From: Paracoccaceae bacterium
GTDB taxonomy: Bacteria; Pseudomonadota; Alphaproteobacteria; Rhodobacterales; Rhodobacteraceae
Length of the DNA: 64,000 nt
Direction of reading: 5' to 3'
NCBI GenBank assembly: GCA_024639125.1
Contig: JAHEJA010000015.1
Coordinates: 33,033-97,032 of the forward strand
The position numbers and the translations under genes were made by a program. Under the pieces are notes generated by a model, which saw only the letters and a program-made list of their open reading frames with translations, did not search any database and had not been told where the DNA came from. Shown here in pieces: positions 6,472 to 37,265 of the stretch (positions within the stretch are counted from its first letter, which is position 1; every line of letters begins with the position of its first letter).

Positions 6472-6500
6472 AAGCCGGGGATTTCCCCGGCTTACTTTTT
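6472..6500. terminator. Bidirectional hairpin terminator between convergent carB and neuA-like
   Basis: AAGCCGGGGatttCCCCGGCTT is a perfect 9-bp stem followed by ACTTTTT on the plus strand. It overlaps the minus-strand stop at 6492-6494. Confidence 0.6.
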
Positions 6501-7160
6501 CAGATGGTCTTCAACAGCTTTAAAATCAGCAAGCGTGTCGATATCCTGAGATCGCTCGTTTGGCATCTCGCATAGCCCAATGCGATCCGTCGCCAACCCA
6601 CCATTTGCTATAAACCAATCCGCGCCAAATACATAAACAGCCCCGTTTGGCTTGAAAACCTCGGGCAAAGATTGGCGGTTGGAAAAGCAATACTCGGGTT
6701 TAGACACAGGGATAAACGTATTGCCTTGACGCATTCCCCATTTCAAAATCGACCGCTCAGCCGGCGTTACAGTTTGCACCAAATCATAGTGCCCCGTTTC
6801 ATAAACAGATATCGCATCCAAAACGTCCTGATCCAGACGAAGTGGCGAGGTCACTTGTAACAAAACAAGCGTTTTTCCGGTCAAGTTTTGCGCCGAAATT
6901 ACATCACGCAAAACGTCATCCATTGTAGAGGTGTCTTGGGCAAATTGCGACGGTCGGTTATAGAGCTCAACCGTGTCTTGTTGATCAGACCCAAGGATTT
7001 CATGCATATCCGTTGACACAACAACCCGAGACACGGTTCGCAGACCTTGATCAACAGCATGTTGAAACAGGGGCTTTCCTGCCAGTGCGCGGATATTTTT
7101 CAAAGCAAGCCCCTTGGACCCCCCCCGTGCTGGTACAATCGCTACATATTCATTCGACAT
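6492..7160 (-). CDS. neuA: Acylneuraminate (CMP-sialic/nonulosonic acid) cytidylyltransferase, short NeuA type
   Basis: IVPARGGSKGLALKNI, QVTSPLR and FKPNGAVYVF motifs match N. meningitidis-type CMP-NeuAc synthetase rather than KdsB. The ATG at 7160 is preferred over the TTG at 7175. It overlaps the waaA stop. Confidence 0.8.
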   Translation of the reverse strand: MSNEYVAIVPARGGSKGLALKNIRALAGKPLFQHAVDQGLRTVSRVVVSTDMHEILGSDQQDTVELYNRPSQFAQDTSTMDDVLRDVISAQNLTGKTLVLLQVTSPLRLDQDVLDAISVYETGHYDLVQTVTPAERSILKWGMRQGNTFIPVSKPEYCFSNRQSLPEVFKPNGAVYVFGADWFIANGGLATDRIGLCEMPNERSQDIDTLADFKAVEDHLKK

Positions 7161-8487
7161 AGGTTGTCCCCACAAATGTGTTTAATGCCGCCAAACTCCG
7201 TGAGGTCGCACCAGATAGCCCATTACAATAGGCTTGGATGTCATTGGGCGTGCTAAAGCCATACCGACGTGCCATGAAAAATTCCTGTAATTCATTATAT
7301 GTCATCTTTTTCACAACACCCTGCGCGATGGCTTCATGCGACAGAAATTCAATAAAGAAATCACCCTGCCCAATAATCGTCGGCTTTCCAAGCGACAAAG
7401 GTTCGGAAATATTATGCGACCCCAAGTCTCCGAAGCCACCGCCAACGACAGCCATCTGGCACAGGTTTAGGTAAAAATACATTTCGCCCAAACTATCCCC
7501 AAGCATGACATCGCAACCCGCACGCCATTCTCCGTTAAGCGTGGCATCCAACGTTTCACTACGTCGCACAAACGCAATGCCTGCGCTCTTGAGCTTATTT
7601 GCGACCACATCAAATCGTTCGGGCGCCCGTGGAACAAAGATGAATATCGGGCGCTCGGGTGCATCATCCGCAAACGACGAAAGCGTGGTTTTCAGAATTT
7701 CAACAAAGTGATCTTCTTCGTCATGCACGATGCTTGCCAAAGTTATCACAGGACGCTTAGGGGGCATGCTTGGTTCAAAAGCTTGAGACGCGGCAATTAA
7801 CACATCAGGGATGTCTTGTTCGAAACGCATTTCACCCGTGATTGCAATTTTTTGCACCCCCCTTTGACGAAACCGCTCTGCATGAGCTTCGGATTTTACC
7901 ATAACGGCCGCAAAGCCAGACACAAAGCGCCCCCGCGACAAAAGCGACTTTTGATCCCGTTCAAAGGCCCGTTGTGAATATTGCCCATTACACAGCACAA
8001 GGGGAATACCCCGCCATTTTGCGGTCCTGATCATGCCGGGCCAAAATTCGATTTCCATAACCAAACCATATTTCGGGCGAAATGCTTTGAAAAACCGCAA
8101 AAATGCAAGGCCATAGTCAAACGGCACATAGACAGGTGTCAAACGGCCTTGGGCTATAGCATCAGCAAATAATTTTTGGGCAGCACTGCGCCCTGCTGGG
8201 GTGAAATGGGTTGTGACCACATATTCCCCCTGTGCCAAAAGCTGATTAATCAAAGGCGCAGCAGATCGCAATTCACCCAAGGACACGGCATGGATCCACA
8301 CATGTTGCTCGGCCCTTTGCCGGTGCAGCCCAAACCGTTCGGGCAGATGCGCCCAGTATGCGGGGTCTTTGCGCCCGCGTTTATACAAATAGGCCAAGAT
8401 CAAAGGCATCCCAAAGACCCAAATCATCCGATATAAAATATAGACCAGATGCGTTGATATGCTTGAATTATTGGGAAGCGGCTTCAC
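7150..8487 (-). CDS. waaA: 3-deoxy-D-manno-octulosonic acid (Kdo) transferase, GT30
   Basis: YKRGRKDPAYW, HAVSLGE, MEIEFWPGMI and LCNGQYS match the E. coli WaaA N-terminal region (RGRKAPAY, HSVSVGE, METELWPN, ANARLS). The start is uncertain (GTG at 8487 or internal Met). Confidence 0.8.
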   Translation of the reverse strand: MKPLPNNSSISTHLVYILYRMIWVFGMPLILAYLYKRGRKDPAYWAHLPERFGLHRQRAEQHVWIHAVSLGELRSAAPLINQLLAQGEYVVTTHFTPAGRSAAQKLFADAIAQGRLTPVYVPFDYGLAFLRFFKAFRPKYGLVMEIEFWPGMIRTAKWRGIPLVLCNGQYSQRAFERDQKSLLSRGRFVSGFAAVMVKSEAHAERFRQRGVQKIAITGEMRFEQDIPDVLIAASQAFEPSMPPKRPVITLASIVHDEEDHFVEILKTTLSSFADDAPERPIFIFVPRAPERFDVVANKLKSAGIAFVRRSETLDATLNGEWRAGCDVMLGDSLGEMYFYLNLCQMAVVGGGFGDLGSHNISEPLSLGKPTIIGQGDFFIEFLSHEAIAQGVVKKMTYNELQEFFMARRYGFSTPNDIQAYCNGLSGATSRSLAALNTFVGTTYVE

Positions 8488-9788
8488 TTGGCGTCCTTTG
8501 CATTTGTCGCATGTTTCACTGGGATCATAGTCACAAGTGTGGTGATCAGAACATCCATTTTCGCCGCCTGTCCCACGCGTAGGGTCTGGGCCGCACCGAG
8601 CGTGTCACGCCAGGTTTCCGATCGCCAGAGCGCACTTAGGTCTTGGGCGTTTTGAATAGGCAGCGCTGCCCCGGCTTGATCTAGCAACGCATAATCATTT
8701 TCAAAATTCAAGGTCCGCGGTCCGTGAATAACAGCACAGCCAAGTTGGACAGCTTCCCATGGGTTATGCCCTTCGACATCGCTGAATGTACCACCGATGA
8801 CGGCACTATTGGCCAATGAATACCACAGCCCCATTTCCCCGAACGTATCCGCGATGTAAACTTGGGTCCGCACATTTGGCGTCTGATCAAAACTGCGCAC
8901 GCCAACATCAAGCCCATGAAGTGTTGGCAGGATAGTTTCTAATCGAGTGATATCACGCGGCGCAATAATCAATAGATCCCGAGGATGGGTCGCCAGAACA
9001 TCCCGAAACGCGTCAATCGCAACAGTTTCGGTTTTGGCATGTGAGGACGCGATCAAATGGATACTCCGATCCTTGGTCAAAGACTTGAACAAAGCCAGCT
9101 CTTGTTGGTTCACATCCAATGGAGGCGCAAAAGGTTTAAGCGACCCATCAACCCGCACGAGGCGTTTGATACCAAAGGCCTGGATATTGTTTGCGGTTGC
9201 AACATCTTGGGCAGACAAGAGATCAAAGTGATCATAGATCAAACGAAACACAGGCATGCTTTTGCGTTTCTTATCGAATGACGCCTTGTTCATACGCGCG
9301 TTTATCAAAACCTGGGGAACCTTGCGCCGCGCAGTCATATCAATGAAATTCGGCCAAATATCTTGTTCAGACCACAGCACCAAATCGGGTGCCCAGTGAT
9401 CAAGAAACGCATTGATATAGCGCGATACATCAAGCGGCAAAAATTGATGCACTGTGCGATCCGGAAGGTTCTTGGCAAATGTTCGGGCGGACGCCACCGT
9501 CGAAGAGGTCACCAAAAAATTCACATCAGGGCGCACGCGAGAGATGGCATCAATCACACCACGCAGCGCCAAAGTTTCGCCCAACCCAACTGCATGAAGC
9601 CACACTAATGGCCCTTGGGGGCGAATAATTGTTGGCTTGCCCAGTTTTTCACACCACCGAACTGGGTCCTCTTTGCCGCGCATAACCCGCTTGATCAAAT
9701 GGCGTTTCGCCATCAGCGAAAACAACCACGTCACACAGCGATAGGCCCCTAGATAAAGCGATCCAATCAGATTAGACATCGACATCAT
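8484..9788 (-). CDS. Second WaaA/KdtA-like GT30 glycosyltransferase (paralog)
   Basis: 434 aa with RGKEDPVRW, HAVGLGE, WSEQDIWPNF and INARMN, the same GT30 hallmarks as the adjacent waaA but clearly diverged. It shares a 4-nt ATGA overlap with waaA and overlaps the neuC stop. Confidence 0.75.
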   Translation of the reverse strand: MMSMSNLIGSLYLGAYRCVTWLFSLMAKRHLIKRVMRGKEDPVRWCEKLGKPTIIRPQGPLVWLHAVGLGETLALRGVIDAISRVRPDVNFLVTSSTVASARTFAKNLPDRTVHQFLPLDVSRYINAFLDHWAPDLVLWSEQDIWPNFIDMTARRKVPQVLINARMNKASFDKKRKSMPVFRLIYDHFDLLSAQDVATANNIQAFGIKRLVRVDGSLKPFAPPLDVNQQELALFKSLTKDRSIHLIASSHAKTETVAIDAFRDVLATHPRDLLIIAPRDITRLETILPTLHGLDVGVRSFDQTPNVRTQVYIADTFGEMGLWYSLANSAVIGGTFSDVEGHNPWEAVQLGCAVIHGPRTLNFENDYALLDQAGAALPIQNAQDLSALWRSETWRDTLGAAQTLRVGQAAKMDVLITTLVTMIPVKHATNAKDAK

Positions 9789-10899
9789 GAAAGCGTTTTT
9801 GGAACGACCGCGCCCAGAAAGCCGGGGATTTCAAGACCTGAATGAATTGGTTGGTCGCATCCCCTTGGCCAAATTCGGTTTGTCCAGAATAGGTAACACC
9901 CCATTGCGTTTGTAGAAATTCGCTAATTTTAGCTGTTTCATCTGCACGTGCTTTAAAAATTGATGCCGCAAAAGATCGATTGGTTTGACGCGATCCGACA
10001 TCTAGCGACGATATGCCAACAAAGGGTGCTTCGCGCACGCCAGCAGAAGAATTGCCGATCATGCAGGCTGCATTCTTCATAAGTTCGGAAAAATGTGAAA
10101 ATCGCATGGACGGTAAAACACGGAACCGGTCTTTGGGGAGGCGGTTGATCACGTCTAAAATGCCATCACAGCCCGGATCATTATTGGGCCGTATGATGAC
10201 AAAATATTTTCCGCTTTCGGCTAAGGCGCCAAACAAATCTTGGGCCTGAGCGCCCATTTGGTCCGCCTCTGACGTGACAGGATGAAAGGTACAAACCCCA
10301 TAATCGCGATCCGCAATTTGATAACGCCCAATCACATCATCCAAGGTAATGCCGGATGGTTTCGCATGAAAGTCCAATTCAGGCGAACCGATCACGTAAA
10401 TCGATTCTTCATCTTCGCCCAATGCTTTGACACGCTTTGCCGCCGTTTCCGAGCTTACAAAATGGCAATAGGCAAGTTTGGAATTACAATGGCGGAACAA
10501 TTCATCAATCGTACCTGACACTTCTCCGCCTTCGATGTGAGCGCACCGAACATAGTTGGTCGCGCAGACCAATGCACAGGCCAGCGCTTCGACGCGATCC
10601 CCATGGACCAGAACCAAATCTGGCGCATGCTCTTGTATGAAATCCGAAAACCCAATCATGGTTTTGGCAAGGATCATATCCTGTGGGTCACCAGGGCGCT
10701 GATTCAAGAATTCATAAACGCCGACATTCGGTGTGCGGTGGACTTCGATTTTTGTGGTGCCGTATGCTTCCATCATGTGCATACCAGTCACAAAGAACGA
10801 AACGTCAAAGCCATTTTGACTGGCTGCAACAGCAAGCGGTTCTAATTTACCGAAATCCGCACGTGTGCCAGTGACAAATATAAGCTTTTGACCGGTCAT
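9772..10899 (-). CDS. neuC: UDP-N-acetylglucosamine 2-epimerase (hydrolysing), NeuC family
   Basis: 375 aa with LIFVTGTRADFGKLEPL, VHGDRVEALA and HIEGGEVSGTIDE motifs typical of the hydrolysing NeuC/LegG subfamily. An AAGGAAA RBS lies 6 nt upstream. Confidence 0.85.
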   Translation of the reverse strand: MTGQKLIFVTGTRADFGKLEPLAVAASQNGFDVSFFVTGMHMMEAYGTTKIEVHRTPNVGVYEFLNQRPGDPQDMILAKTMIGFSDFIQEHAPDLVLVHGDRVEALACALVCATNYVRCAHIEGGEVSGTIDELFRHCNSKLAYCHFVSSETAAKRVKALGEDEESIYVIGSPELDFHAKPSGITLDDVIGRYQIADRDYGVCTFHPVTSEADQMGAQAQDLFGALAESGKYFVIIRPNNDPGCDGILDVINRLPKDRFRVLPSMRFSHFSELMKNAACMIGNSSAGVREAPFVGISSLDVGSRQTNRSFAASIFKARADETAKISEFLQTQWGVTYSGQTEFGQGDATNQFIQVLKSPAFWARSFQKRFHDVDV

Positions 10900-10908
10900 T
10901 CGCTTTCC

Positions 10909-11940
10909 TTAGTCCTTGAAATCTTGCCACGTCAGCTGTTGATTTCGCACAACAGCTGTCATCAGTGTCTTGCCAACAACCTTGTCAAAATCATAGCCGG
11001 CTATCGCGCCATCACCTGGTCGGCGGGCCCAAATATCGGCTTCTGTAATGGTATGTCCCGCAGGAAGATCCTTGTCTGCGACAACACTGGCGCGGGCAAA
11101 GCGATAGACGTCTTCTTCGGGGCCCGTCCGTTGTTTTTCATTGTGAAGTGCCGTGTGAATTTCACGCGAGCGATCAATCAAAAACCGAAGCTCTGCCGGA
11201 TCCATGGAACATGAAATATCCGGTCCCTTGCGATATCGGCTATCGGTGTAGTGCCGTTCCAAGATAGACGCCCCGAGCGCGACAGATGCCAACGCCATTT
11301 CAGGACCAATCGAATGATCCGAAAAGCCAACGACAGCCTTGGGAAAGGCTTTCTTAAGCTCTGTCACCCCTTTTAGGGATACAATTTCAGGAGGGGATGG
11401 ATAAAGATTGGTACATTCCAACAATGCATAGTCCACGCCCGACTGTTCCAAAATTTCGACGCTTTGGCGAATGCTTTCAATCGTTTGCATCCCAGTGGAC
11501 AATATCACAGGTTTACCCTTGGCAGCGATGTGGCGGATAAGTGGTAAGTTATCCGCTTCACCCGATCCGATTTTATACGCAGGGACATCAATGCTTTCTA
11601 GAAAGTCCGCAGCGGCCCGCGAGAACGGAGTCGAGATGTAAATCAACCCAAGGCTTTCTGTATACTCCTTGAGCGCGATTTCATCCTCTAGGGAAAGTGC
11701 GCAATTCTGCATCACATCCCAAATCGAAATAGGCGCATTCGGCGGAAAAATAGACTTGGCTGCTTCGGTCATTTCATCTTCGACAATGTGCGTTTGATGC
11801 TTAACACATTCACAGCCTGACAAGGCAGCTAAACGCACCATTTCTTTGGCCACAGCCAAGTCACCACCGTGATTGATACCGATTTCAGCTATTACCAAAG
11901 GAGGTTCCGTTGGGCCAATTTTTCTAGTGCCAATGTGCAT
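10909..11940 (-). CDS. neuB: N-acetylneuraminate (nonulosonate) synthase, NeuB family
   Basis: IGTRKIGPTEPPLVIAEIGINHGGDL TIM-barrel start and a C-terminal SAF/antifreeze-like domain. The preferred start is the ATG at 11940 (GGAG 6 nt upstream). The ORF-track start at 12009 would overlap lpxL-like by 58 nt. Confidence 0.85.
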   Translation of the reverse strand: MHIGTRKIGPTEPPLVIAEIGINHGGDLAVAKEMVRLAALSGCECVKHQTHIVEDEMTEAAKSIFPPNAPISIWDVMQNCALSLEDEIALKEYTESLGLIYISTPFSRAAADFLESIDVPAYKIGSGEADNLPLIRHIAAKGKPVILSTGMQTIESIRQSVEILEQSGVDYALLECTNLYPSPPEIVSLKGVTELKKAFPKAVVGFSDHSIGPEMALASVALGASILERHYTDSRYRKGPDISCSMDPAELRFLIDRSREIHTALHNEKQRTGPEEDVYRFARASVVADKDLPAGHTITEADIWARRPGDGAIAGYDFDKVVGKTLMTAVVRNQQLTWQDFKD

Positions 11941-11951
11941 CATGCACTCCG

Positions 11952-12857
11952 TTATGAATTGTTGTGATGCGCGGGCATCTTTTTCCAGCGGCGATGTATC
12001 CAAAACCACTGTTCTGGATTTACACGAACGCGTTTCTCAAGGCTATCATTAAGATCTTGGGTCATTTGAACAGCATCAGAATGTTCAATGGGCTCTTCTA
12101 GTACAATTTCATAGCTTAGATCAGCTTGTCGAATAGCATAGGCAGGTACCATTACTGCGTTAAATTTCAAAGCTAACTCGGCAACAGATAGGGCCGTGTA
12201 TGCCGTTTCACCAAAAAACGTAACAGGCGCGCCGTTCCATGCATGTTGATCAATCAACACAGCCAACGATCCCCCAGATCGCAAAAACGTAACCATTTCC
12301 TTTAAGCCAGGGCGCCCGCGTTCGAACAAAGGCGTGCCGATTTTTGAAATGGATTCAATGTAATCTTTGTGGAAATAGGGATTGTTCATCCGCCGATATA
12401 ATCCACCAACCGACAATCCCGCATGGATCAAGTTAGCGCGCACTGCATCGTAGTTCCCAAAATGCCCAGATACCACAATGGTCGGACGTCCTTCGGACTG
12501 CGCTTGTTTCAGAAGATCCAGACCTGGACCTGAAATTGGCATTCCGATCACGTGGCGCGAAAATTCATTTGGCGAAAAGAGCTCGGTCAACGTAATCCCA
12601 ACATTGCGACACACATCTTTGGCCAATTGATCGGCTTTGTCTGGCGCGACTTCGGGCCAAACGCGGGCAAGGTTTTCAACAACGCGTTTGTTGTAACCTG
12701 CCAAAGGCGCTACTATTTTTCCAAAAAACCACCCGCCAAAACGTCTGCGGGGCGAAAAAGGGATCACACGAAGCAACCACAGCAACCCGCGAATTATCGT
12801 AGCTTGCAGTCGGTATTTCACGTCCTGACGGGTTGAGAGGGTCTTTTTATTTGCCAC
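11952..12857 (-). CDS. lpxL: Lipid A biosynthesis late (lauroyl/myristoyl) acyltransferase, LpxL/HtrB family
   Basis: 301 aa with an N-terminal membrane anchor and the HxxxxD acyltransferase motif (SGHFGNYD), the length typical of Kdo2-lipid IVA acyltransferases. It is the first gene of the minus-strand operon. Confidence 0.8.
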   Translation of the reverse strand: MANKKTLSTRQDVKYRLQATIIRGLLWLLRVIPFSPRRRFGGWFFGKIVAPLAGYNKRVVENLARVWPEVAPDKADQLAKDVCRNVGITLTELFSPNEFSRHVIGMPISGPGLDLLKQAQSEGRPTIVVSGHFGNYDAVRANLIHAGLSVGGLYRRMNNPYFHKDYIESISKIGTPLFERGRPGLKEMVTFLRSGGSLAVLIDQHAWNGAPVTFFGETAYTALSVAELALKFNAVMVPAYAIRQADLSYEIVLEEPIEHSDAVQMTQDLNDSLEKRVRVNPEQWFWIHRRWKKMPAHHNNS

Positions 12858-12981
12858 GCGTAGCCTCTGGCTTTTCGTAAAAACATGACAGATGACCTAG
12901 CACCTTCGTAATAAGAGTACCAGTAATTGTCACTCTTTTGATTTACATTGTTGCGCGATGTTCATATGACATTCACCCAAC

Positions 12982-13647
12982 ATGCTCATCGCGCCCTTTG
13001 GCCAGTCGGAACACTTTATGCGTAAAAAAGACAAATTCGATGTACCAATCCACGATGACGCAGCATTGCAAAAATCTTTGGCCTATATGCGTTGGTCAGA
13101 CCATGCAATTCTACGCCAAGTATGGAACAACTTTGATCAGATTGCACCACGGGTATATCGCTCCAATCATCCCTCGCCAAAGCAATTTGAATGGCTGCGC
13201 GATCAAGGGATCAAAACGATCCTTAGTTTTCGCGCAAATAGATTCGCTCCAACGCACACAGAGAAATATCTTTGCAAGAAGCTTGGTCTAACTTTCCATA
13301 GCTGCCCAATGTCATCAAGCGCACCGCTTGCGTCAGAATTGAATGCTTTATTTGGCTACTTTGATACACTTGAAAAACCGTTTCTGATGCATTGCAAATC
13401 AGGCGCAGACCGCACCAGTTTAGCCAGCGCGCTCTATCTGATCGATCAAGCCGGCTATTCAGCCGATCAAACCAAACACATGTTTTCATTGCGGTATGTA
13501 CACCTTAAGTTTTCCAAAAAAGGCGTGCTTGATGCGTTCATCGATGCTTTTGCGCGCGCCAATCACAGCACTGGCATCCCCATAAGAGAGTGGGTCAACA
13601 CGGTCTATAACCCAGAGGAACTTCAGGCCGCATTTGATGCGCGCTAG
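12982..13647 (+). CDS. Cys-based (CX5R) phosphatase, atypical dual-specificity/tyrosine phosphatase family
   Basis: Catalytic P-loop HCKSGADRTS (CX5R) resembling PFA-DSP/Siw14-like HCK(R/S)GxxRTG. Divergent from the lpxL-like operon. Confidence 0.6.
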   Translation: MLIAPFGQSEHFMRKKDKFDVPIHDDAALQKSLAYMRWSDHAILRQVWNNFDQIAPRVYRSNHPSPKQFEWLRDQGIKTILSFRANRFAPTHTEKYLCKKLGLTFHSCPMSSSAPLASELNALFGYFDTLEKPFLMHCKSGADRTSLASALYLIDQAGYSADQTKHMFSLRYVHLKFSKKGVLDAFIDAFARANHSTGIPIREWVNTVYNPEELQAAFDAR

Positions 13648-32906: not shown

Positions 32907-34394
32907 GTGCAGCTATTCTGGTTCAAACGCGATCTTCGTGTGTTTGATAACCGCGCCCTTTCACTGGCTGCGGCCCGTGGTCCTGTGCTTCCGATTTATG
33001 TTTTTGAACCTGAAATGTGGGCATGCCCCGATGCATCGGCACGGCATTTAACCTTTGTACACCAATGCTTGGGCGAATTGCATAATGACCTTGCACGTGC
33101 GGGTCAGCCATTGGTGACCCGATTTGGACCAATCCTCGATGTACTTGAAGATTTACGTCAAACCTATTCGATCCAATCGCTATGGTCCCATCAAGAAACG
33201 GGCAACGCATGGAGCTATGAACGTGACAAGCGCGTTGCCGCGTGGTGCCGTGACAATGCCATTCAATGGCACGACATTCAAAACCACGGCGTTGTCCGAC
33301 CCTTAAAATCCCGCAATGGCTGGGCCATGCAATGGGATCGGTTCATGGCTGAACCCACCACGCCAACGCCGATCCTAACCCCCATTACGGATGCCCCGTT
33401 CCTTTGCCCGAGCGCCCGTGATTTAACGATGACGCCCGACAACTGTTCACACGCACAGCAAGGCGGGCGACGCGCGGGCCAAGAACGGCTTGCATCATTC
33501 TTGGATCATCGCGGGCGCACCTATCGTAGCGCCATGTCGTCACCGCTAGATGGGGCCGCAGCCTGTTCGCGGATCTCGCCACATCTGGCCTGGGGCACAG
33601 TATCGTTGCGAGAAGTCACTCAAGCCACATGGTCCGCACAAATGCAGCCACGGTCCGTGCAATGGAAAGCATCATTAAAATCATTCAACAGTCGTCTACA
33701 TTGGCATTGCCACTTTATTCAAAAGCTAGAAGATGAACCAAGGCTTGAATGGGAAAACATGCATCCGGCCTATAATGGATTGCGCCCTGACCAAGCTGAT
33801 CCAATCAAGCTTGCTGCTTGGGCGAATGGTGAAACTGGCCTCCCGTTTGTGGATGCCTGTATGCGCAGTTTACGCGCCACGGGGTGGTTAAACTTTCGGA
33901 TGCGCGCAATGGTTATGGCGGTCGCGAGCTATCATCTTTGGCTGGATTGGAAAGCAACGGGACATGTCCTAGCCAGATATTTCACCGATTACGAACCGGG
34001 CATCCACTGGAGCCAAGTTCAAATGCAATCGGGCACCACAGGCATAAACACAGTCCGCGTTTATAATCCGATCAAACAAGGCTATGACCAAGACCCCACC
34101 GGGGCCTTTACACGGACATGGGTTCCCGAGCTGGAACTGATTGATGATCTTTATTTACAAGAACCGTGGAAGGCGCCGAATGCGGCAACAATATTGGGTA
34201 AATCCTATCCAATGCCGATCGTCGATGTCACGCATGCCGCCCGAGAAGCCAAAGATCGCATTTGGGCCGTTCGCCGCACCGAAGGGTTTAGAGATGGGGC
34301 TGCAAAAGTTCTAAAAAAACATGCCAGCCGCAAACCAGCCACCAAACGCGCGCGCCCCAAAGCAGCGTCCAATCAATTAAGCTTACCCCTATGA
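32907..34394 (+). CDS. Cryptochrome/photolyase family protein, canonical domain order (photolyase or DASH-like)
   Basis: N-terminal alpha/beta domain (LFWFKRDLRVFDNRAL) and a C-terminal FAD-binding helical domain (GETGLPFVDACMRSLRATGWLNFRMR...VYNPIKQGYDQDP). GTG start at 32907 with GGAG 6 nt upstream. Confidence 0.85.
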   Translation: MQLFWFKRDLRVFDNRALSLAAARGPVLPIYVFEPEMWACPDASARHLTFVHQCLGELHNDLARAGQPLVTRFGPILDVLEDLRQTYSIQSLWSHQETGNAWSYERDKRVAAWCRDNAIQWHDIQNHGVVRPLKSRNGWAMQWDRFMAEPTTPTPILTPITDAPFLCPSARDLTMTPDNCSHAQQGGRRAGQERLASFLDHRGRTYRSAMSSPLDGAAACSRISPHLAWGTVSLREVTQATWSAQMQPRSVQWKASLKSFNSRLHWHCHFIQKLEDEPRLEWENMHPAYNGLRPDQADPIKLAAWANGETGLPFVDACMRSLRATGWLNFRMRAMVMAVASYHLWLDWKATGHVLARYFTDYEPGIHWSQVQMQSGTTGINTVRVYNPIKQGYDQDPTGAFTRTWVPELELIDDLYLQEPWKAPNAATILGKSYPMPIVDVTHAAREAKDRIWAVRRTEGFRDGAAKVLKKHASRKPATKRARPKAASNQLSLPL

Positions 34395-34525
34395 AAATGC
34401 GCAAGAAATCGGATCTTCCTACCAAAACCTGCGTTACCTGTGGACGTCCGTTCACGTGGCGCAAGAAATGGGCCAAGGTGTGGGACAGCGTGAAGTATTG
34501 TTCAGAAAAATGCAGGCGTACATAA
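34391..34525 (+). CDS. DUF2256 small zinc-ribbon protein (44 aa), missing from the ORF track
   Basis: MKMRKKSDLPTKTCVTCGRPFTWRKKWAKVWDSVKYCSEKCRRT has a CxxC...CxxxC signature typical of DUF2256. Its ATG overlaps the upstream stop (ATGA), and its TAA overlaps the next ATG (TAATG). Confidence 0.75.
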   Translation: MKMRKKSDLPTKTCVTCGRPFTWRKKWAKVWDSVKYCSEKCRRT

Positions 34526-35751
34526 TGCAAGATAATGATCTTTTGACCGACCTTCCGTTGGAAGCTGAAAACATTGATTTCACACCTACCCGCGCTGCGG
34601 GCCTTGCCCGATTGGACAAATTCGTCTCGCGGACGGGGCGGCATTATGCATCCCAACGTAACTATGATTTTGGGCCAAAATTTCGATCAAACGTTTCCGC
34701 ATTATCACCATGGATACGACACGGTCTCGTAAACGAATATGATGTGTTAGAGCGCGTTTTAGCCAAGCATTCACTATCAAGCGCCGAAAAATTCGTTCAA
34801 GAAGTCATGTGGCGGACGTATTTCAAAGGCTGGTTAGAACATCGCCCTACGGTTTGGGATCACTATAAACGTGACTTGGAACGCTTAAGCACAAACGTAA
34901 CTGATCCCAGTTACAGGCAGGCAATCAATGGTGAAACGGGAATAGAGTGTTTCGATCACTGGGCTCACGAATTGGTCCATACCGGCTATCTGCACAATCA
35001 TGCTCGCATGTGGTTTGCATCGATCTGGGTCTTTACTCTGCGATTGCCATGGCAGCTTGGCGCAGATTTTTTCATGCAACATTTGTTAGATGGTGATCCA
35101 GCATCCAACACTCTGAGTTGGCGCTGGGTGTCAGGATTACATACCCAAGGCAAAACCTATCTGGCCCGCGCAGAGAATATCGCCAAATTCACCAATGGTC
35201 GTTTTAACCCGATTGGACAGCTTGCGACAACGGCACATCCATTACTCGAAGAGGTGGATCACCCAAAAATATCACTGTCTCATATTAATACACCGATTAC
35301 GGAACCCTATATTCTTTTGCTTAGCGAAGACGACACTTACCCAAACATCGCACCAAATCCAGTTGACGTAGTTGCCGTTAACTGTTCCGCGTTGCGGTCC
35401 CCTCGCCCTCTAAATCCAGTCATTACCGAATTTGTGGACGCGGCGTTGCGACAAGGGCTAGATCACTTTCAATCCAATGACGATACACTCGCAACCCCAA
35501 ACACCGTGGTCGCGCAATTGGTGAAATCGGCACAAACCCAAGGAGTGCGCACAATCGTCACCCCCTATGCCACGACGGGTCCTGTTCGCGATGTTCTGAA
35601 AGATATATCACCCATGCTTCAAGATGCGGGATTGCGACTACAACAGGTTCAACGCACCTACGATCAACTTTGTTGGGCACATGCCTCCAAGGGATTTTTT
35701 GCTCTGAAAAAACAAATACCGCCTTTACTGAGTGCGTTGAAATTAGCCTAA
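34525..35751 (+). CDS. Photolyase-like protein with N-terminal FAD-binding domain and no N-terminal alpha/beta domain
   Basis: Residues ~15-230 match the photolyase FAD-binding domain (RNYDFGPKFRSNVSALSPWIRHGL; GETGIECFDHWAHELVHTGYLHNHARMWFASIW; SWRWVSG). The C-terminal ~180 aa weakly resemble a photolyase alpha/beta domain. The start is at M24 of the track ORF. Confidence 0.7.
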   Translation: MQDNDLLTDLPLEAENIDFTPTRAAGLARLDKFVSRTGRHYASQRNYDFGPKFRSNVSALSPWIRHGLVNEYDVLERVLAKHSLSSAEKFVQEVMWRTYFKGWLEHRPTVWDHYKRDLERLSTNVTDPSYRQAINGETGIECFDHWAHELVHTGYLHNHARMWFASIWVFTLRLPWQLGADFFMQHLLDGDPASNTLSWRWVSGLHTQGKTYLARAENIAKFTNGRFNPIGQLATTAHPLLEEVDHPKISLSHINTPITEPYILLLSEDDTYPNIAPNPVDVVAVNCSALRSPRPLNPVITEFVDAALRQGLDHFQSNDDTLATPNTVVAQLVKSAQTQGVRTIVTPYATTGPVRDVLKDISPMLQDAGLRLQQVQRTYDQLCWAHASKGFFALKKQIPPLLSALKLA

Positions 35752-37265
35752 AGCGACGCTAAAAATTTCTGTGCAGATATGCGGTATTCTGTCTTTTTAA
35801 CATCATCCATTTTGTCCCATGTCCGAAACACATGCGACAAACGCGGGTTTCCCCGAAGCTTGGCTTGGTTACGATCCAAAAAGTCCCAATACAGCGGATT
35901 AAACGGGCAAGCATTCTCGCCTGTTTTTTGTTTGACATCATATCGGCACCCGGAACAGTAATCCGACATTTTACTGATGTAATTACCGCTCGCAGCATAG
36001 GGCTTTGACCCTAAAATACCGCCATCCGCGAATTGGCTCATTCCAATTACATTGGGCGCTTCGACCCATTCATAGGCATCTGCATAAACGGCCAAATACC
36101 ATTCATGCACCTGAAATGGATCAACACCCGCAAGCATGGCAAAATTCCCTGTCACCATGAGCCGCTGGATGTGATGTGCATAGGCTTCATCGCGCGTTTG
36201 CTCGATCGCCGAGGCCATACATGCCATATCCGTCTGTGCATCCCAATAAAACAAAGGAAGATCCCGCGACGCATCCAGAAAATTTTGATCGGTGTAATCT
36301 GGCATCTTTAACCAATAAATACCGCGCACATATTCACGCCAACCAATAATTTGTCGAATATATCCTTCGACAGCATTCAAGGGCGCGGCGCCATCATAAT
36401 AGGCGCGCTCCACACGCGCGCAAACTTCGAGAGGCGTCAACAGACCGATATTGATATATTGCGCCAAGATCGAATGATACAGAAATGGCTCACCAGAAAG
36501 CATCGCATCCTGATAATCGCCAAAACCAGCCAATGCAGTTGACGCGAAATGTTCCAGCGCGACCAAGGCATCCTTGCGCGTGACGGCAAACCAAAACCCA
36601 TCTAACCGCCCAAAATTTTTGGCAAACTTTTCCTCGACAAGCTCAAGGACTTCTTGCGTGATTGGGTCAGGCTGAACTTTGACAGGGGACGGCATAAACA
36701 AATCGCCCTTGGCTGGCTTTCGGTTTTCCGCATCAAAATTCCACTGCCCCCCTTGGGGACCATCATCACACATCAAAAGCCCGGTTTTTCGCCGCATGTC
36801 ACGGTAAAAATATTCCATCCGCAATTGTTTGCGCCCGTCTGCCCAAGTTTGGAATTCTTGATGTGTCGCGATAAAACGATCATCATCCACCATCTGTATC
36901 GACAGATCACTCTCAAGCAAGGCGTGGTTCAAACGATACTCAGATGGCTCTGTCACAACAAGCTGCGTCACCCCCAGCATTTGCATCTGCCGTCTAGCTT
37001 CGCTGACTACATCGCCTGCATTCTGGGGGTCATCCAGCTTTGTGTACACAACGCGCCAACCGCTCTGCCGCAACTCTTGGGCAAAATGGCGCATTGCGGA
37101 AAACACAAATGCCAACTTCCGTTTATGATGCGCCACATACGTTGCTTCGCTTGCAACTTCTGCCATCAAGATAACATCAGTCGCCTTATCAGCTGTTTCT
37201 ATCGCGCTAATTTTGGGGTTCAACTGATCCCCTAAAATTAGAACTAACCGATTATGACCCGCCAT
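35748..37265 (-). CDS. FeS-BCP type cryptochrome/(6-4) photolyase (CryB/PhrB family)
   Basis: 505 aa with LVLILGDQL at the N-terminus and four conserved Cys in DYCSGCRYD...ENACPFNPLYW, the 4Fe-4S ligand pattern of PhrB/CryB. Convergent 4-nt overlap with the upstream operon. Confidence 0.85.
   Translation of the reverse strand: MAGHNRLVLILGDQLNPKISAIETADKATDVILMAEVASEATYVAHHKRKLAFVFSAMRHFAQELRQSGWRVVYTKLDDPQNAGDVVSEARRQMQMLGVTQLVVTEPSEYRLNHALLESDLSIQMVDDDRFIATHQEFQTWADGRKQLRMEYFYRDMRRKTGLLMCDDGPQGGQWNFDAENRKPAKGDLFMPSPVKVQPDPITQEVLELVEEKFAKNFGRLDGFWFAVTRKDALVALEHFASTALAGFGDYQDAMLSGEPFLYHSILAQYINIGLLTPLEVCARVERAYYDGAAPLNAVEGYIRQIIGWREYVRGIYWLKMPDYTDQNFLDASRDLPLFYWDAQTDMACMASAIEQTRDEAYAHHIQRLMVTGNFAMLAGVDPFQVHEWYLAVYADAYEWVEAPNVIGMSQFADGGILGSKPYAASGNYISKMSDYCSGCRYDVKQKTGENACPFNPLYWDFLDRNQAKLRGNPRLSHVFRTWDKMDDVKKTEYRISAQKFLASL

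Follow-up and report, generated by a model that had tools for sequence, protein, structure and literature searches.

The WaaA (KdtA) Kdo transferases of CAZy family GT30 are bifunctional in Escherichia coli, monofunctional in Aquifex aeolicus (PDB 2XCI/2XCU), and tri-functional in Chlamydia, whose WaaA builds onto Kdo through an alpha-2->8 linkage. In Shewanella, an oxidase and an aminotransferase of the Kdo8N pathway (KdnA/KdnB) make a modified ulosonic acid, which takes a lipid A-proximal position and is transferred by an ordinary WaaA. GT30 enzymes are not known to accept any donor besides CMP-Kdo and its derivatives. The family has been described as one of CMP-Kdo transferases (PMC5811610), and LpxL requires Kdo on its substrate (PMC6286764). 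In Acinetobacter baumannii, a further Kdo is transferred by a second, dedicated enzyme, KdoT, which is an ELM1-like protein and not a member of GT30 (PMC12856342). Within the Rhodobacterales, the lipooligosaccharide (LOS) of Loktanella rosea has a core in which lipid A carries alpha-Neu-(2->8)[alpha-Kdo-(2->4)]-alpha-Kdo and no other sugar (Ierano et al. 2010, summarized in PMC3210612; PMC5811610). R. capsulatus LPS also contains Neu5Ac, listed in a review that does not describe its linkage or position (PMC9631793).

Here, we describe six tightly packed minus-strand genes (positions 6492-12857) in the window, that is, the whole 64,000-nucleotide stretch of DNA analyzed. They encode an LpxL-like protein, NeuB, NeuC, two GT30 proteins (GT30-B and GT30-A), and a NeuA-like protein. 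We consider it probable, at roughly 60%, that this operon builds an LOS with sialic acid directly on the inner-core Kdo, as in L. rosea, with GT30-B adding Kdo, GT30-A adding sialic acid, and the LpxL-like enzyme acylating the product. The ulosonic-acid-only core of L. rosea matches a locus in which neuABC is accompanied by two GT30 genes as the sole glycosyltransferase genes. What has been published for L. rosea is the chemical structure of this core, to which no genes have been assigned. Our literature search found no paper assigning these genes.

The open reading frames match the coordinates of the earlier note exactly, and profile searches of all six proteins agree with its gene-family calls (PF03279, PF03102, TIGR03568, PF04413 twice, and PF02348). 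When the longest reading frames are taken, the junctions in 5'->3' order amount to +58, -9, +17, +4, and +26 nt, with overlaps counted as positive. A 75%-identical relative (locus L083) provided revised start codons, likely ATG 11943 for neuB, as judged from a 343-amino-acid ortholog, and likely ATG 7160 for neuA; with these starts the operon stays compact, with gaps of 8 and 9 nt followed by overlaps of 17 (or 8), 4, and 11 nt. L083 shares both the six-gene order and the flanks of the operon, and searches of public genomes and metagenomes place a neuC-GT30-GT30 core at about 96 loci, the majority of them in Rhodobacterales. The gene-order conservation that the earlier note had proposed to check is thus borne out, and the operon is no chance juxtaposition. 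Its close relatives all fit Rhodobacterales.

A hairpin at 6472-6493, not assigned to a strand, lies between the convergent carB and neuA genes. Its 9-bp stem contains 7 G-C pairs, a T-rich tail follows on either strand, and the element is likely a bidirectional terminator and the 3' end of the operon; this reading is argued from position, because the total of terminator-like sites across the region is not above shuffled expectation. Upstream of lpxL, a divergent intergenic region of 124 nt (12858-12981, likewise without strand) presumably holds the promoters for the operon and for the adjacent phosphatase-like gene, as judged only from gene layout, since a sigma-70 scan of this region found nothing convincing. 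That neighboring gene (12982-13647, plus strand) encodes a PTP/dual-specificity-type phosphatase with weak matches to Pfam PTP families and to TpbA (4R0S) and with a CX5R motif (HCKSGADR). Inspection of the translation by eye revealed no evident N-terminal hydrophobic signal-like segment. Orthologs with 40-42% identity reside in or beside the neu-GT30 cluster at six loci (L001, L086, L087, L099, L109, and L119), and L083 carries a closer relative; the protein is possibly an accessory member of the system.

The first gene of the operon (11952-12857, minus strand) encodes an LpxL-like lipid A late (secondary) acyltransferase (PF03279 Lip_A_acyltrans, 148 bits) with a visible HX4D motif (HFGNYD). 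It scores below all NCBIfam equivalog cutoffs (best NF005120, 130 versus 273), and lpxL-like genes are also found in the neu-GT30 loci L083, L044, L054, L084, L086, and L087 and in several metagenome loci. NeuB, a nonulosonate (N-acetylneuraminate-type) synthase (10909-12009, minus strand; PF03102, 234 bits, plus SAF), matches the NeuB profile TIGR03569 at 346 bits (cutoff 400) versus 235 bits for PseI and shares 74-82% identity with NeuB of related loci. NeuC (9772-10899, minus strand) is a hydrolysing UDP-GlcNAc 2-epimerase, scoring 348 bits against TIGR03568 NeuC_NnaA, above the cutoff of 236, and 213 bits against PF02350. The short NeuA-like CMP-nonulosonate synthetase (6492-7175, minus strand; PF02348 cytidylyltransferase, 65 bits) has its best NCBIfam match in PseF (TIGR03584, 82 bits, below the cutoff of 206), with KdsB models at no more than 32 bits. 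Orthologs with 44-49% identity lie directly downstream of a GT30 gene of the GT30-A clade in L091, L139, and L134, and the cytidylyltransferases adjoining genes of this clade score as nonulosonate type rather than as KdsB.

Both GT30 proteins share with WaaA the PF04413 domain, R212/N273/E276, the proposed base E31, and an N-terminal hydrophobic helix, and both score far short of all NCBIfam equivalog cutoffs for WaaA. They are 24% identical to each other. GT30-B (8484-9788, minus strand; PF04413 Kdo-transferase N-terminal domain, 158 bits; 31% identical to E. coli WaaA) nests within the clade formed by single-copy WaaA proteins of Hyphomicrobiales and of other Rhodobacterales. It has the canonical R-Q-S-K...N-F signature and retains all CMP-binding and catalytic residues, and by sequence is probably the vertically inherited alphaproteobacterial WaaA, a Kdo transferase. 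The B proteins of tandem loci carry clade-specific changes, namely, S57G, E132D, and loss of the Glu at position 244 (E. coli numbering), the last being D in most of them and T in the GT30-B of the window. S28, a putative lipid IVA phosphate ligand, is lost in GT30-B but kept in GT30-A, a point that speaks against the division of roles preferred here.

GT30-A (7150-8487, minus strand; PF04413, 148 bits; 29% identical to E. coli WaaA) falls in a separate monophyletic clade, apart from GT30-B and ordinary WaaA. At E. coli positions 154/183/206/208, every sampled member of this A clade has a fixed switch to Q-K-E-R from the R-Q-(S/N)-K found in every canonical WaaA sampled (E. coli, alphaproteobacterial copies with intact catalytic motifs, Melainabacteria, and 20 unrelated metagenome controls). 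The N-F at 354/355, present in nearly all canonical WaaA with a few alphaproteobacterial single copies varying there, is missing from all sampled members of the A clade, and GT30-A has lost H241 as well. The last signature position, E. coli 208, corresponds to A. aeolicus K162, which together with E98 has been proposed to position the Kdo donor via its carboxylate (PMC6286764). K to R at this position is a conservative change, which weighs against the preferred reading of GT30-A. The clade retains the CMP-binding and base residues R212, N273, E276, G30/E31, and E98. An AlphaFold model of GT30-A (pLDDT 90.9) is predicted to adopt the GT-B fold of WaaA, with WaaA 2XCI as its best PDB match (E 1e-20); its top 50 PDB hits include no sialyltransferase.

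GT30-A differs from WaaA also in its genomic ties, which are to nonulosonate genes rather than to kdsB or lpxK. When only loci with 4 kb or more of flanking sequence are counted, nonulosonate genes adjoin 54 of 59 A-clade genes versus 0 of 26 canonical WaaA genes (Fisher test uncorrected for phylogeny, 3e-17). For the majority of the 96 tandem loci, the gene directly before the GT30 pair, about 1 kb upstream, is a neuC homolog. Nonulosonate clusters also include lone A-clade genes, as in Amylibacter kogurei (neuB-neuC-A-GFO-neuA-SDR), L137 (neuC-neuB-neuA facing A), L139 (neuB facing A-neuA), and L134 (A-neuA). Given this linkage and these lone copies, the labels waaA and waaA-like 2 of the earlier note are probably reversed, 8484-9788 being the vertical WaaA ortholog and 7150-8487 the neu-linked paralog. 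Yoonia litorea, from the genus that holds L. rosea under current taxonomy, has a minimal cluster of neuB-neuC-B-A plus neuA, with no other glycosyltransferase nearby.

It is conceivable, but in our view unlikely, that both GT30 proteins are Kdo transferases splitting the work, for instance, with B adding Kdo I and A adding Kdo II, and that sialic acid is transferred by an unlinked enzyme, GT29-like or of an unrecognised family. The WaaA CMP-binding and catalytic residues are kept in both proteins, the fixed changes of tandem B at S57, E132, and Glu-244 would fit lost bifunctionality, and no neu gene lies within 10 kb of five tandem B-A loci (Natronohydrobacter L047/L049/L057, Roseivivax L033, and L105). 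A. baumannii offers an example of divided Kdo transfer, albeit through an enzyme outside GT30 (PMC12856342). GT29-like genes do occur inside the cluster at four related loci and in Loktanella pyoseonensis, but these four stand against about 120 A-clade loci, and the window has none. At those four loci, the GT29-like gene could encode the real sialyltransferase. A division of Kdo transfer would also leave unexplained why A-clade genes, lone copies included, lie within nonulosonate clusters beside nonulosonate-type cytidylyltransferases in lineages of 37% to 71% GC, and why A no longer has residues that never vary among the bona fide Kdo transferases sampled. Exchanged roles, with A as a horizontally acquired working Kdo transferase and tandem B re-purposed for sialic acid, appear quite improbable. 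A keeps S57/S28, E132/E100, and E244 as E. coli WaaA does, along with an E. coli-like N-terminus (RGRKxPxY...ERFG), tandem B is altered at these three positions, and B directly follows neuC, being linked to it in tandem loci as tightly as A. However, A departs at more universally conserved positions than B, B shows the canonical donor-site signature in full and groups with single-copy WaaA that must transfer Kdo, and a lone B gene was never seen in the neu clusters surveyed.

Least credible to us is that the neu genes supply some other glycan, such as a capsule or O-antigen assembled elsewhere, and that their adjacency reflects mere clustering of envelope genes. Many relatives have variable genes (RgpF-like, sulfotransferase, Capsule_synth, and methyltransferase) in the stretch separating neuB from neuC, showing that further glycan elaboration occurs there, and the Neu5Ac of R. 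capsulatus LPS, for which the review describes no linkage or position (PMC9631793), would be compatible with such a glycan. Against this, the operon is translationally coupled, and its linkage is restricted to one GT30 clade and maintained at about 100 loci. The L. rosea core has Neu directly on Kdo and no other sugars (PMC3210612). Moreover, the window lacks export and polymerase genes: a Pfam scan of reading frames of at least 150 amino acids, excluding those merely overlapping a longer annotated one, and tblastn with a GT29-like protein as query detected no further glycosyltransferase, no sialyltransferase, and no kps/wz export gene anywhere in the 64 kb. The claim that the two GT30 homologs are the operon's only glycosyltransferases is thereby confirmed and extends to the window; that of missing kps-type export holds for the window too, and that of a missing classical sialyltransferase holds for the window but not for every relative, given the four loci with a GT29-like gene.

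The neu linkage, the altered donor site, and the published L. rosea structure support the earlier proposal of a nonulosonic acid on the Kdo/lipid A inner core, with GT30-A probably acting as a candidate CMP-sialic acid:Kdo transferase. The sequence data directly establish the family-level identities of the genes, the structure of the operon, and the A subfamily with its signature and its genomic link to neu genes. Which donor and acceptor GT30-A uses, in what order the steps run, and which nonulosonate is made are inferred, and the preferred reading is as follows. NeuC would convert UDP-GlcNAc to ManNAc, NeuB would condense PEP with the ManNAc, yielding Neu5Ac or a close derivative, and NeuA would activate this nonulosonate to its CMP-sugar. 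GT30-B, of the ordinary WaaA lineage, would transfer Kdo from CMP-Kdo to lipid IVA, and GT30-A, by inverting CMP-dependent GT-B chemistry in a re-modelled donor-sugar site, would transfer the nonulosonate from its CMP donor to a Kdo of Kdo-lipid A. The LpxL-like enzyme would add a Kdo-dependent secondary acyl chain.

The alpha-2->8 linkage type of chlamydial WaaA is that of Neu attachment in L. rosea. As with A. baumannii KdoT, a second dedicated enzyme would add an ulosonic acid to the Kdo region, unlike a WaaA that does it all; KdoT differs from GT30-A in being ELM1-like and using a Kdo donor. One A-clade sub-branch (L128-L135) adjoins an aminotransferase, a GMC oxidoreductase, and a cytidylyltransferase, reminiscent of Shewanella Kdo8N synthesis, which involves other enzyme families; the window has neuABC and not an oxidase/aminotransferase set. 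If our hypothesis is true, GT30-A would act on CMP-beta-sialic acid with inversion and produce an alpha-sialoside, the same reaction as that of the classical sialyltransferases (GT38, GT42, GT52, GT80, GT97, and GT100) and GT29, although the window encodes no member of these families. The distinct and widespread GT30-A subfamily would then represent a new kind of sialyltransferase.

The earlier note had described six tightly packed minus-strand genes at 6492-12857 and named their families. Six open reading frames (ORFs) occupy exactly this interval, successive genes being 8 and 9 nt apart at the first two junctions and overlapping by 17 (or 8), 4, and 11 nt at the other three (starts backed by a 75%-identical relative), and Pfam and NCBIfam profile searches supported the assignments at family level. 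The first gene (11952-12857) encodes an LpxL-type lipid A acyltransferase (PF03279, 148 bits) whose HX4D/E motif reads HFGNYD in the translation; because it misses every NCBIfam equivalog cutoff, its acyl chain and position cannot be named. It is followed by a putative NeuB (10909-12009), with NeuB (PF03102) and SAF domains and 346 bits against TIGR03569 (cutoff, 400) versus 235 bits against PseI, and by NeuC (9772-10899), which passed the TIGR03568 cutoff of 236 with 348 bits. Next are two GT30 proteins recognized by PF04413, here termed GT30-B (8484-9788; 158 bits) and GT30-A (7150-8487; 148 bits). The last gene (6492-7175) encodes a short NeuA-like cytidylyltransferase (PF02348, 65 bits), for which PseF was the nearest NCBIfam model (82 bits, under its cutoff of 206), while KdsB reached at most 32 bits. 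A strong hairpin at 6472-6493 lies between the operon's 3' end and the convergent carB, and 124 nt separate the operon start from a divergent gene. An Rfam scan of the window gave no match, and promoter- and terminator-like sites were no more numerous than in shuffled sequence.

Legionaminic and pseudaminic acid pathways were considered for the window and rejected, because NeuB scored well above PseI and the dehydratase, aminotransferase, and acetyltransferase genes that these routes require were not found in the operon or its flanks by Pfam scans of window ORFs. These scans took ORFs of at least 150 aa, minus those overlapping a longer annotated ORF. Together with tblastn using a GT29-like protein from a related locus (L087), they revealed no member of GT29, GT38, GT42, GT52, or GT80 in the operon or the window and no glycosyltransferase besides the two GT30 proteins in the 64 kb. 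The earlier note had likewise named no such sialyltransferase and only the two GT30 homologs as glycosyltransferases of the operon.

Conservation of gene order, which the same note had proposed as a check, was borne out. One Logan contig encodes GT30 proteins 69-75% identical to those of the window and matches it in all six genes and in the genes on either side; the best tandem relatives among species representatives are about 50% identical. We pooled 167 loci from a GT30-B scan (one genome per species), a scan of metagenome contigs with an alignment of GT30-A relatives, and individual protein look-ups. A tandem GT30 pair, in the order B then A, is present in 96 of them, in most cases with neuC directly upstream of the pair, and with neuB adjoining or a few kilobases further upstream and the neuA-like gene downstream. 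Where the host is named, it nearly always belongs to the Rhodobacterales (Yoonia, Shimia, Tabrizicola, Rhodobacter, Cereibacter, Phaeovulum, Sediminimonas, Aliishimia, Marivivens, and others). A non-exhaustive pattern scan detected no second alphaproteobacterial-type GT30 locus in any of 55 tandem-pair genomes.

The two GT30 proteins are of different kinds. They share 24% identity, less than either shares with Escherichia coli WaaA (31% for B, 29% for A), and for this reason a recent waaA duplication was rejected. In neighbor-joining trees, tandem-B proteins fall within the single-copy WaaA clade of Hyphomicrobiales and other Rhodobacterales, and A forms a separate long-branch clade. Thus, GT30-B probably represents the vertical WaaA lineage and GT30-A a divergent paralog, so that the labels "waaA" for 7150-8487 and "waaA-like 2" for 8484-9788 in the earlier note are probably reversed. 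GT30-B retains G30, E31, E98, K162, R212, N273, and E276 (Aquifex aeolicus numbering) in the alignment; it passed none of the NCBIfam WaaA equivalogs (best, NF004387 with 274 bits; cutoff, 617). The predicted model of GT30-A (pLDDT 90.9) matched WaaA 2XCI best (E 1e-20), ahead of the next non-WaaA match (E 1e-9); its predicted fold is that of a WaaA-like GT-B protein, and this is all that the fold search confirms. In Roseovarius litoreus (L079, 10001-11029) and Aliiroseovarius (L076, 10001-11071), the single B-like GT30 proteins are devoid of the SxGE and ExE motifs and of R269. They look catalytically dead, in which case another Kdo transferase must exist in those genomes.

Sequences were aligned with WaaA of E. 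coli and interpreted through the Aquifex WaaA structure summarized in PMC6286764. The canonical set comprised E. coli WaaA, alphaproteobacterial single copies with intact motifs, tandem-B, two Melainabacteria proteins, and 20 unrelated metagenome proteins. E31/G30 and E98 are retained, as are R212, N273, and E276 as CMP ligands, wherever the catalytic motifs are intact, including in GT30-A. At E. coli positions 154/183/206/208, canonical WaaA proteins read R-Q-(S/N)-K; nearly all also have H or R at 241 and N-F at 354/355, from which a few alphaproteobacterial single copies vary. Every sampled A-clade sequence instead has Q-K-E-R at the first four positions, one of them with Asp for Glu, and a small or hydrophobic residue (in one case Asp) at 241, and has lost N-F at 354/355, most often to (T/G)-I. 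Position 208 aligns with Aquifex K162, so that GT30-A does not carry the full set of residues that mutagenesis has shown to matter in WaaA: this lysine is Arg in the window and in every aligned A-clade locus sequence, the neighboring N/S is Glu, and Q183 is Lys. In the Aquifex enzyme, as described in PMC6286764, K162 and E98 are thought to position the Kdo donor via its carboxylate, and E31 is the proposed base. We infer that nucleotide-binding and catalytic machinery kept alongside an altered sugar-positioning site would be expected for the same chemistry with a different ulosonic acid donor. Tandem-B shows changes of its own. S57G is fixed across all 96 loci, including 8484-9788 of the window, and most copies carry E132D and no longer have Glu at 244, which is usually replaced by Asp and in the window by Thr. 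These three changes were seen only in WaaA copies adjoining an A-clade gene. S57 aligns with Aquifex S28, which the summary in PMC6286764 gives as a putative lipid IVA 1-phosphate ligand.

Among loci with at least 4 kb of flank on both sides, neuA, neuB, or neuC was found near the A-clade gene in 54 of 59, versus none of 26 for canonical single WaaA (Fisher 3e-17, indicative only, as shared ancestry is ignored). The branch is large and diverse. Among 1.84 billion cluster representatives of a global protein library, roughly 50 of the best 150 clusters at 50% identity have a variant signature at 154/183/206/208; the exact Q-K-E-R is present in 30 of these 150, and most other variants are close, such as N-K-E-K. 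Long A-clade representatives are fused to GNAT, DUF218, or unassigned sequence and not to NeuA or NeuB, a weak hint at most. Three GT30 fusion proteins of the library, P0373 (866 aa), P0374 (599 aa), and P0383 (648 aa), are double GT30, A-like GT30-GNAT acetyltransferase, and A-like GT30-DUF218 fusions.

The neighborhoods also vary in the sugar genes that they contain. In most relatives (L045, L081, L084, L086, L087, and about 40 other loci), the neuA-like gene has a GFO/IDH/MocA oxidoreductase gene and an SDR gene as its neighbors, a trio that resembles Campylobacter jejuni ptmF-ptmB-ptmA. Both genes are missing from the window, whose neuA is of a different subtype, so that those relatives may modify the sugar. 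At L128 (1191-5819), as at L129-L133 and L135, a LegC-like aminotransferase, a nonulosonate-type cytidylyltransferase, and a GMC oxidoreductase precede the A-clade GT30. The gene string of this L128-L135 sub-branch suggests yet another modified ulosonic acid. Its logic is analogous to that of Shewanella Kdo8N with different enzyme families, and it may represent an amino-ulosonic acid route.

A chemical precedent exists in the marine Rhodobacterales member Loktanella rosea, whose lipooligosaccharide (LOS) core, as reported by Ierano et al. (2010) and relayed in PMC3210612 and PMC5811610, consists only of alpha-Neu-(2->8)[alpha-Kdo-(2->4)]-alpha-Kdo on a phosphate-free lipid A. As this core is made of Kdo and Neu alone, only Kdo transferase and Neu transferase activities are needed, matching the minimal clusters with exactly two GT30 genes and no other glycosyltransferase that we found in the window, in the 75%-identical relative L083, in Yoonia litorea (L082), and at L035/L037. 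L. rosea itself is now placed in Yoonia. Chlamydial WaaA, a GT30 enzyme, makes alpha-2->8 Kdo-Kdo bonds, so that a GT30 forming a 2->8 bond onto Kdo is no stretch. Neu5Ac was also reported in Rhodobacter capsulatus lipopolysaccharide (LPS) (Krauss 1992, as cited in PMC9631793); no protein named as from this species was present among the homologs of a Rhodobacter A-type query. In the pathway that we propose, NeuC, NeuB, and NeuA would supply a CMP-sialic acid by the established NeuABC route, GT30-B would transfer Kdo to lipid IVA, GT30-A would transfer sialic acid onto Kdo, and finally the LpxL-like enzyme would attach a secondary acyl chain. LpxL of E. coli has a strong preference for Kdo-bearing substrate (PMC6286764). 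The operon is likely to make a Kdo-lipid A core that bears sialic acid, and we put the probability that GT30-A is the sialic acid-to-Kdo transferase at roughly 60%.

In the main alternative, which we consider unlikely, each GT30 carries out part of the Kdo transfer and the sialic acid is added by an unlinked enzyme. Five tandem loci, in Natronohydrobacter, Roseivivax, and one metagenome contig, have housekeeping neighbors only, and this counts against sialyl transfer by A. On the other side, A accompanies neu genes without B: Amylibacter kogurei carries neuB-neuC-A-oxidoreductase-neuA-SDR in one string, L137 (37% GC) has neuC-neuB-neuA facing a lone A, L139 has neuB facing A-neuA, and L134 (71% GC) has A-neuA. 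Among the collected loci, B-type genes never stood alone in a neu cluster, and this also bears on a swap of the two roles, with B as the sialyltransferase, a reading less likely than the first. Similarly improbable, we think, is that the neu genes feed an unrelated capsule or O-antigen. The earlier note's observation that kps-type export is missing stands, in that neither KpsMT/DE nor Wza, Wzx, or Wzy was seen among the window ORFs scanned.

A further sialyltransferase candidate is restricted to few clusters. A 210-aa GT29-like gene (PF00777) occurs in four related clusters, of Marivivens, Pseudogemmobacter, strain D3-12, and Aliishimia (loci L001, L012, L086, and L087), and is absent from the window and the great majority of loci. 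With an overlapping gene it spans 5392-6788 in L087 and 5404-6747 in L086, both on the minus strand, and phmmer aligned it to the ST3Gal-I sialylmotif region (E 4e-5). In those four clusters, its product may be the Kdo sialyltransferase or may add a second sialic acid. The overlapping gene, of 233-255 aa and no assigned family, lies between neuB and neuC; without the GT29-like gene, it was present in at least 14 clusters of the first locus set and in more among the metagenome loci.

Divergent from lpxL, the window encodes a PTP/dual-specificity-type phosphatase (12982-13647, plus strand) with the CX5R motif HCKSGADR and no evident N-terminal signal-like segment in its translation. Orthologs lie in or beside the neu-GT30 cluster at L001, L083, L086, L087, L099, L109, and L119. 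Given that L. rosea lipid A has neither phosphate, this protein might be a lipid A/LOS phosphatase of non-PAP2 type. Elsewhere in the window, at 32907-37265, three photolyase/cryptochrome-family genes stand in a row, two with FAD_binding_7 and one with DPRP.

GT30 has been described as a family of CMP-Kdo transferases (PMC5811610), and WaaA alone is held to build the contiguous inner-core ulosonic acid block by Kdo addition (PMC12856342). The sugar structure discussed here is already known, and the pathway parts are ordinary at family level. As far as the searchable literature shows, the novelty lies in recognizing a separate GT30 subfamily with its own residue signature and a near-obligate association with nonulosonate genes; our literature search turned up no paper that connects neu genes with a GT30 paralog. 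With slightly better than even odds, we propose that the GT30-A branch uses CMP-nonulosonate or another modified ulosonic acid donor, and not CMP-Kdo, as a new sialyltransferase family acting on Kdo-lipid A at the cytoplasmic face and widespread in marine Roseobacter and Rhodobacter groups.

If true, this would add a sialyltransferase family whose acceptor, Kdo on lipid A, is unusual, and would give the "against the rules" LOS of L. rosea and the Neu5Ac reported in R. capsulatus LPS a genetic basis. A simple residue signature would then predict sialylated LOS from genomes, and GT30-A might become a tool for making Kdo-sialic acid glycolipids. Many abundant marine Rhodobacterales would then be expected to display membrane-proximal core sialic acid, which would bear on recognition by phages, grazers, and hosts and on the low endotoxicity of these LPS types.
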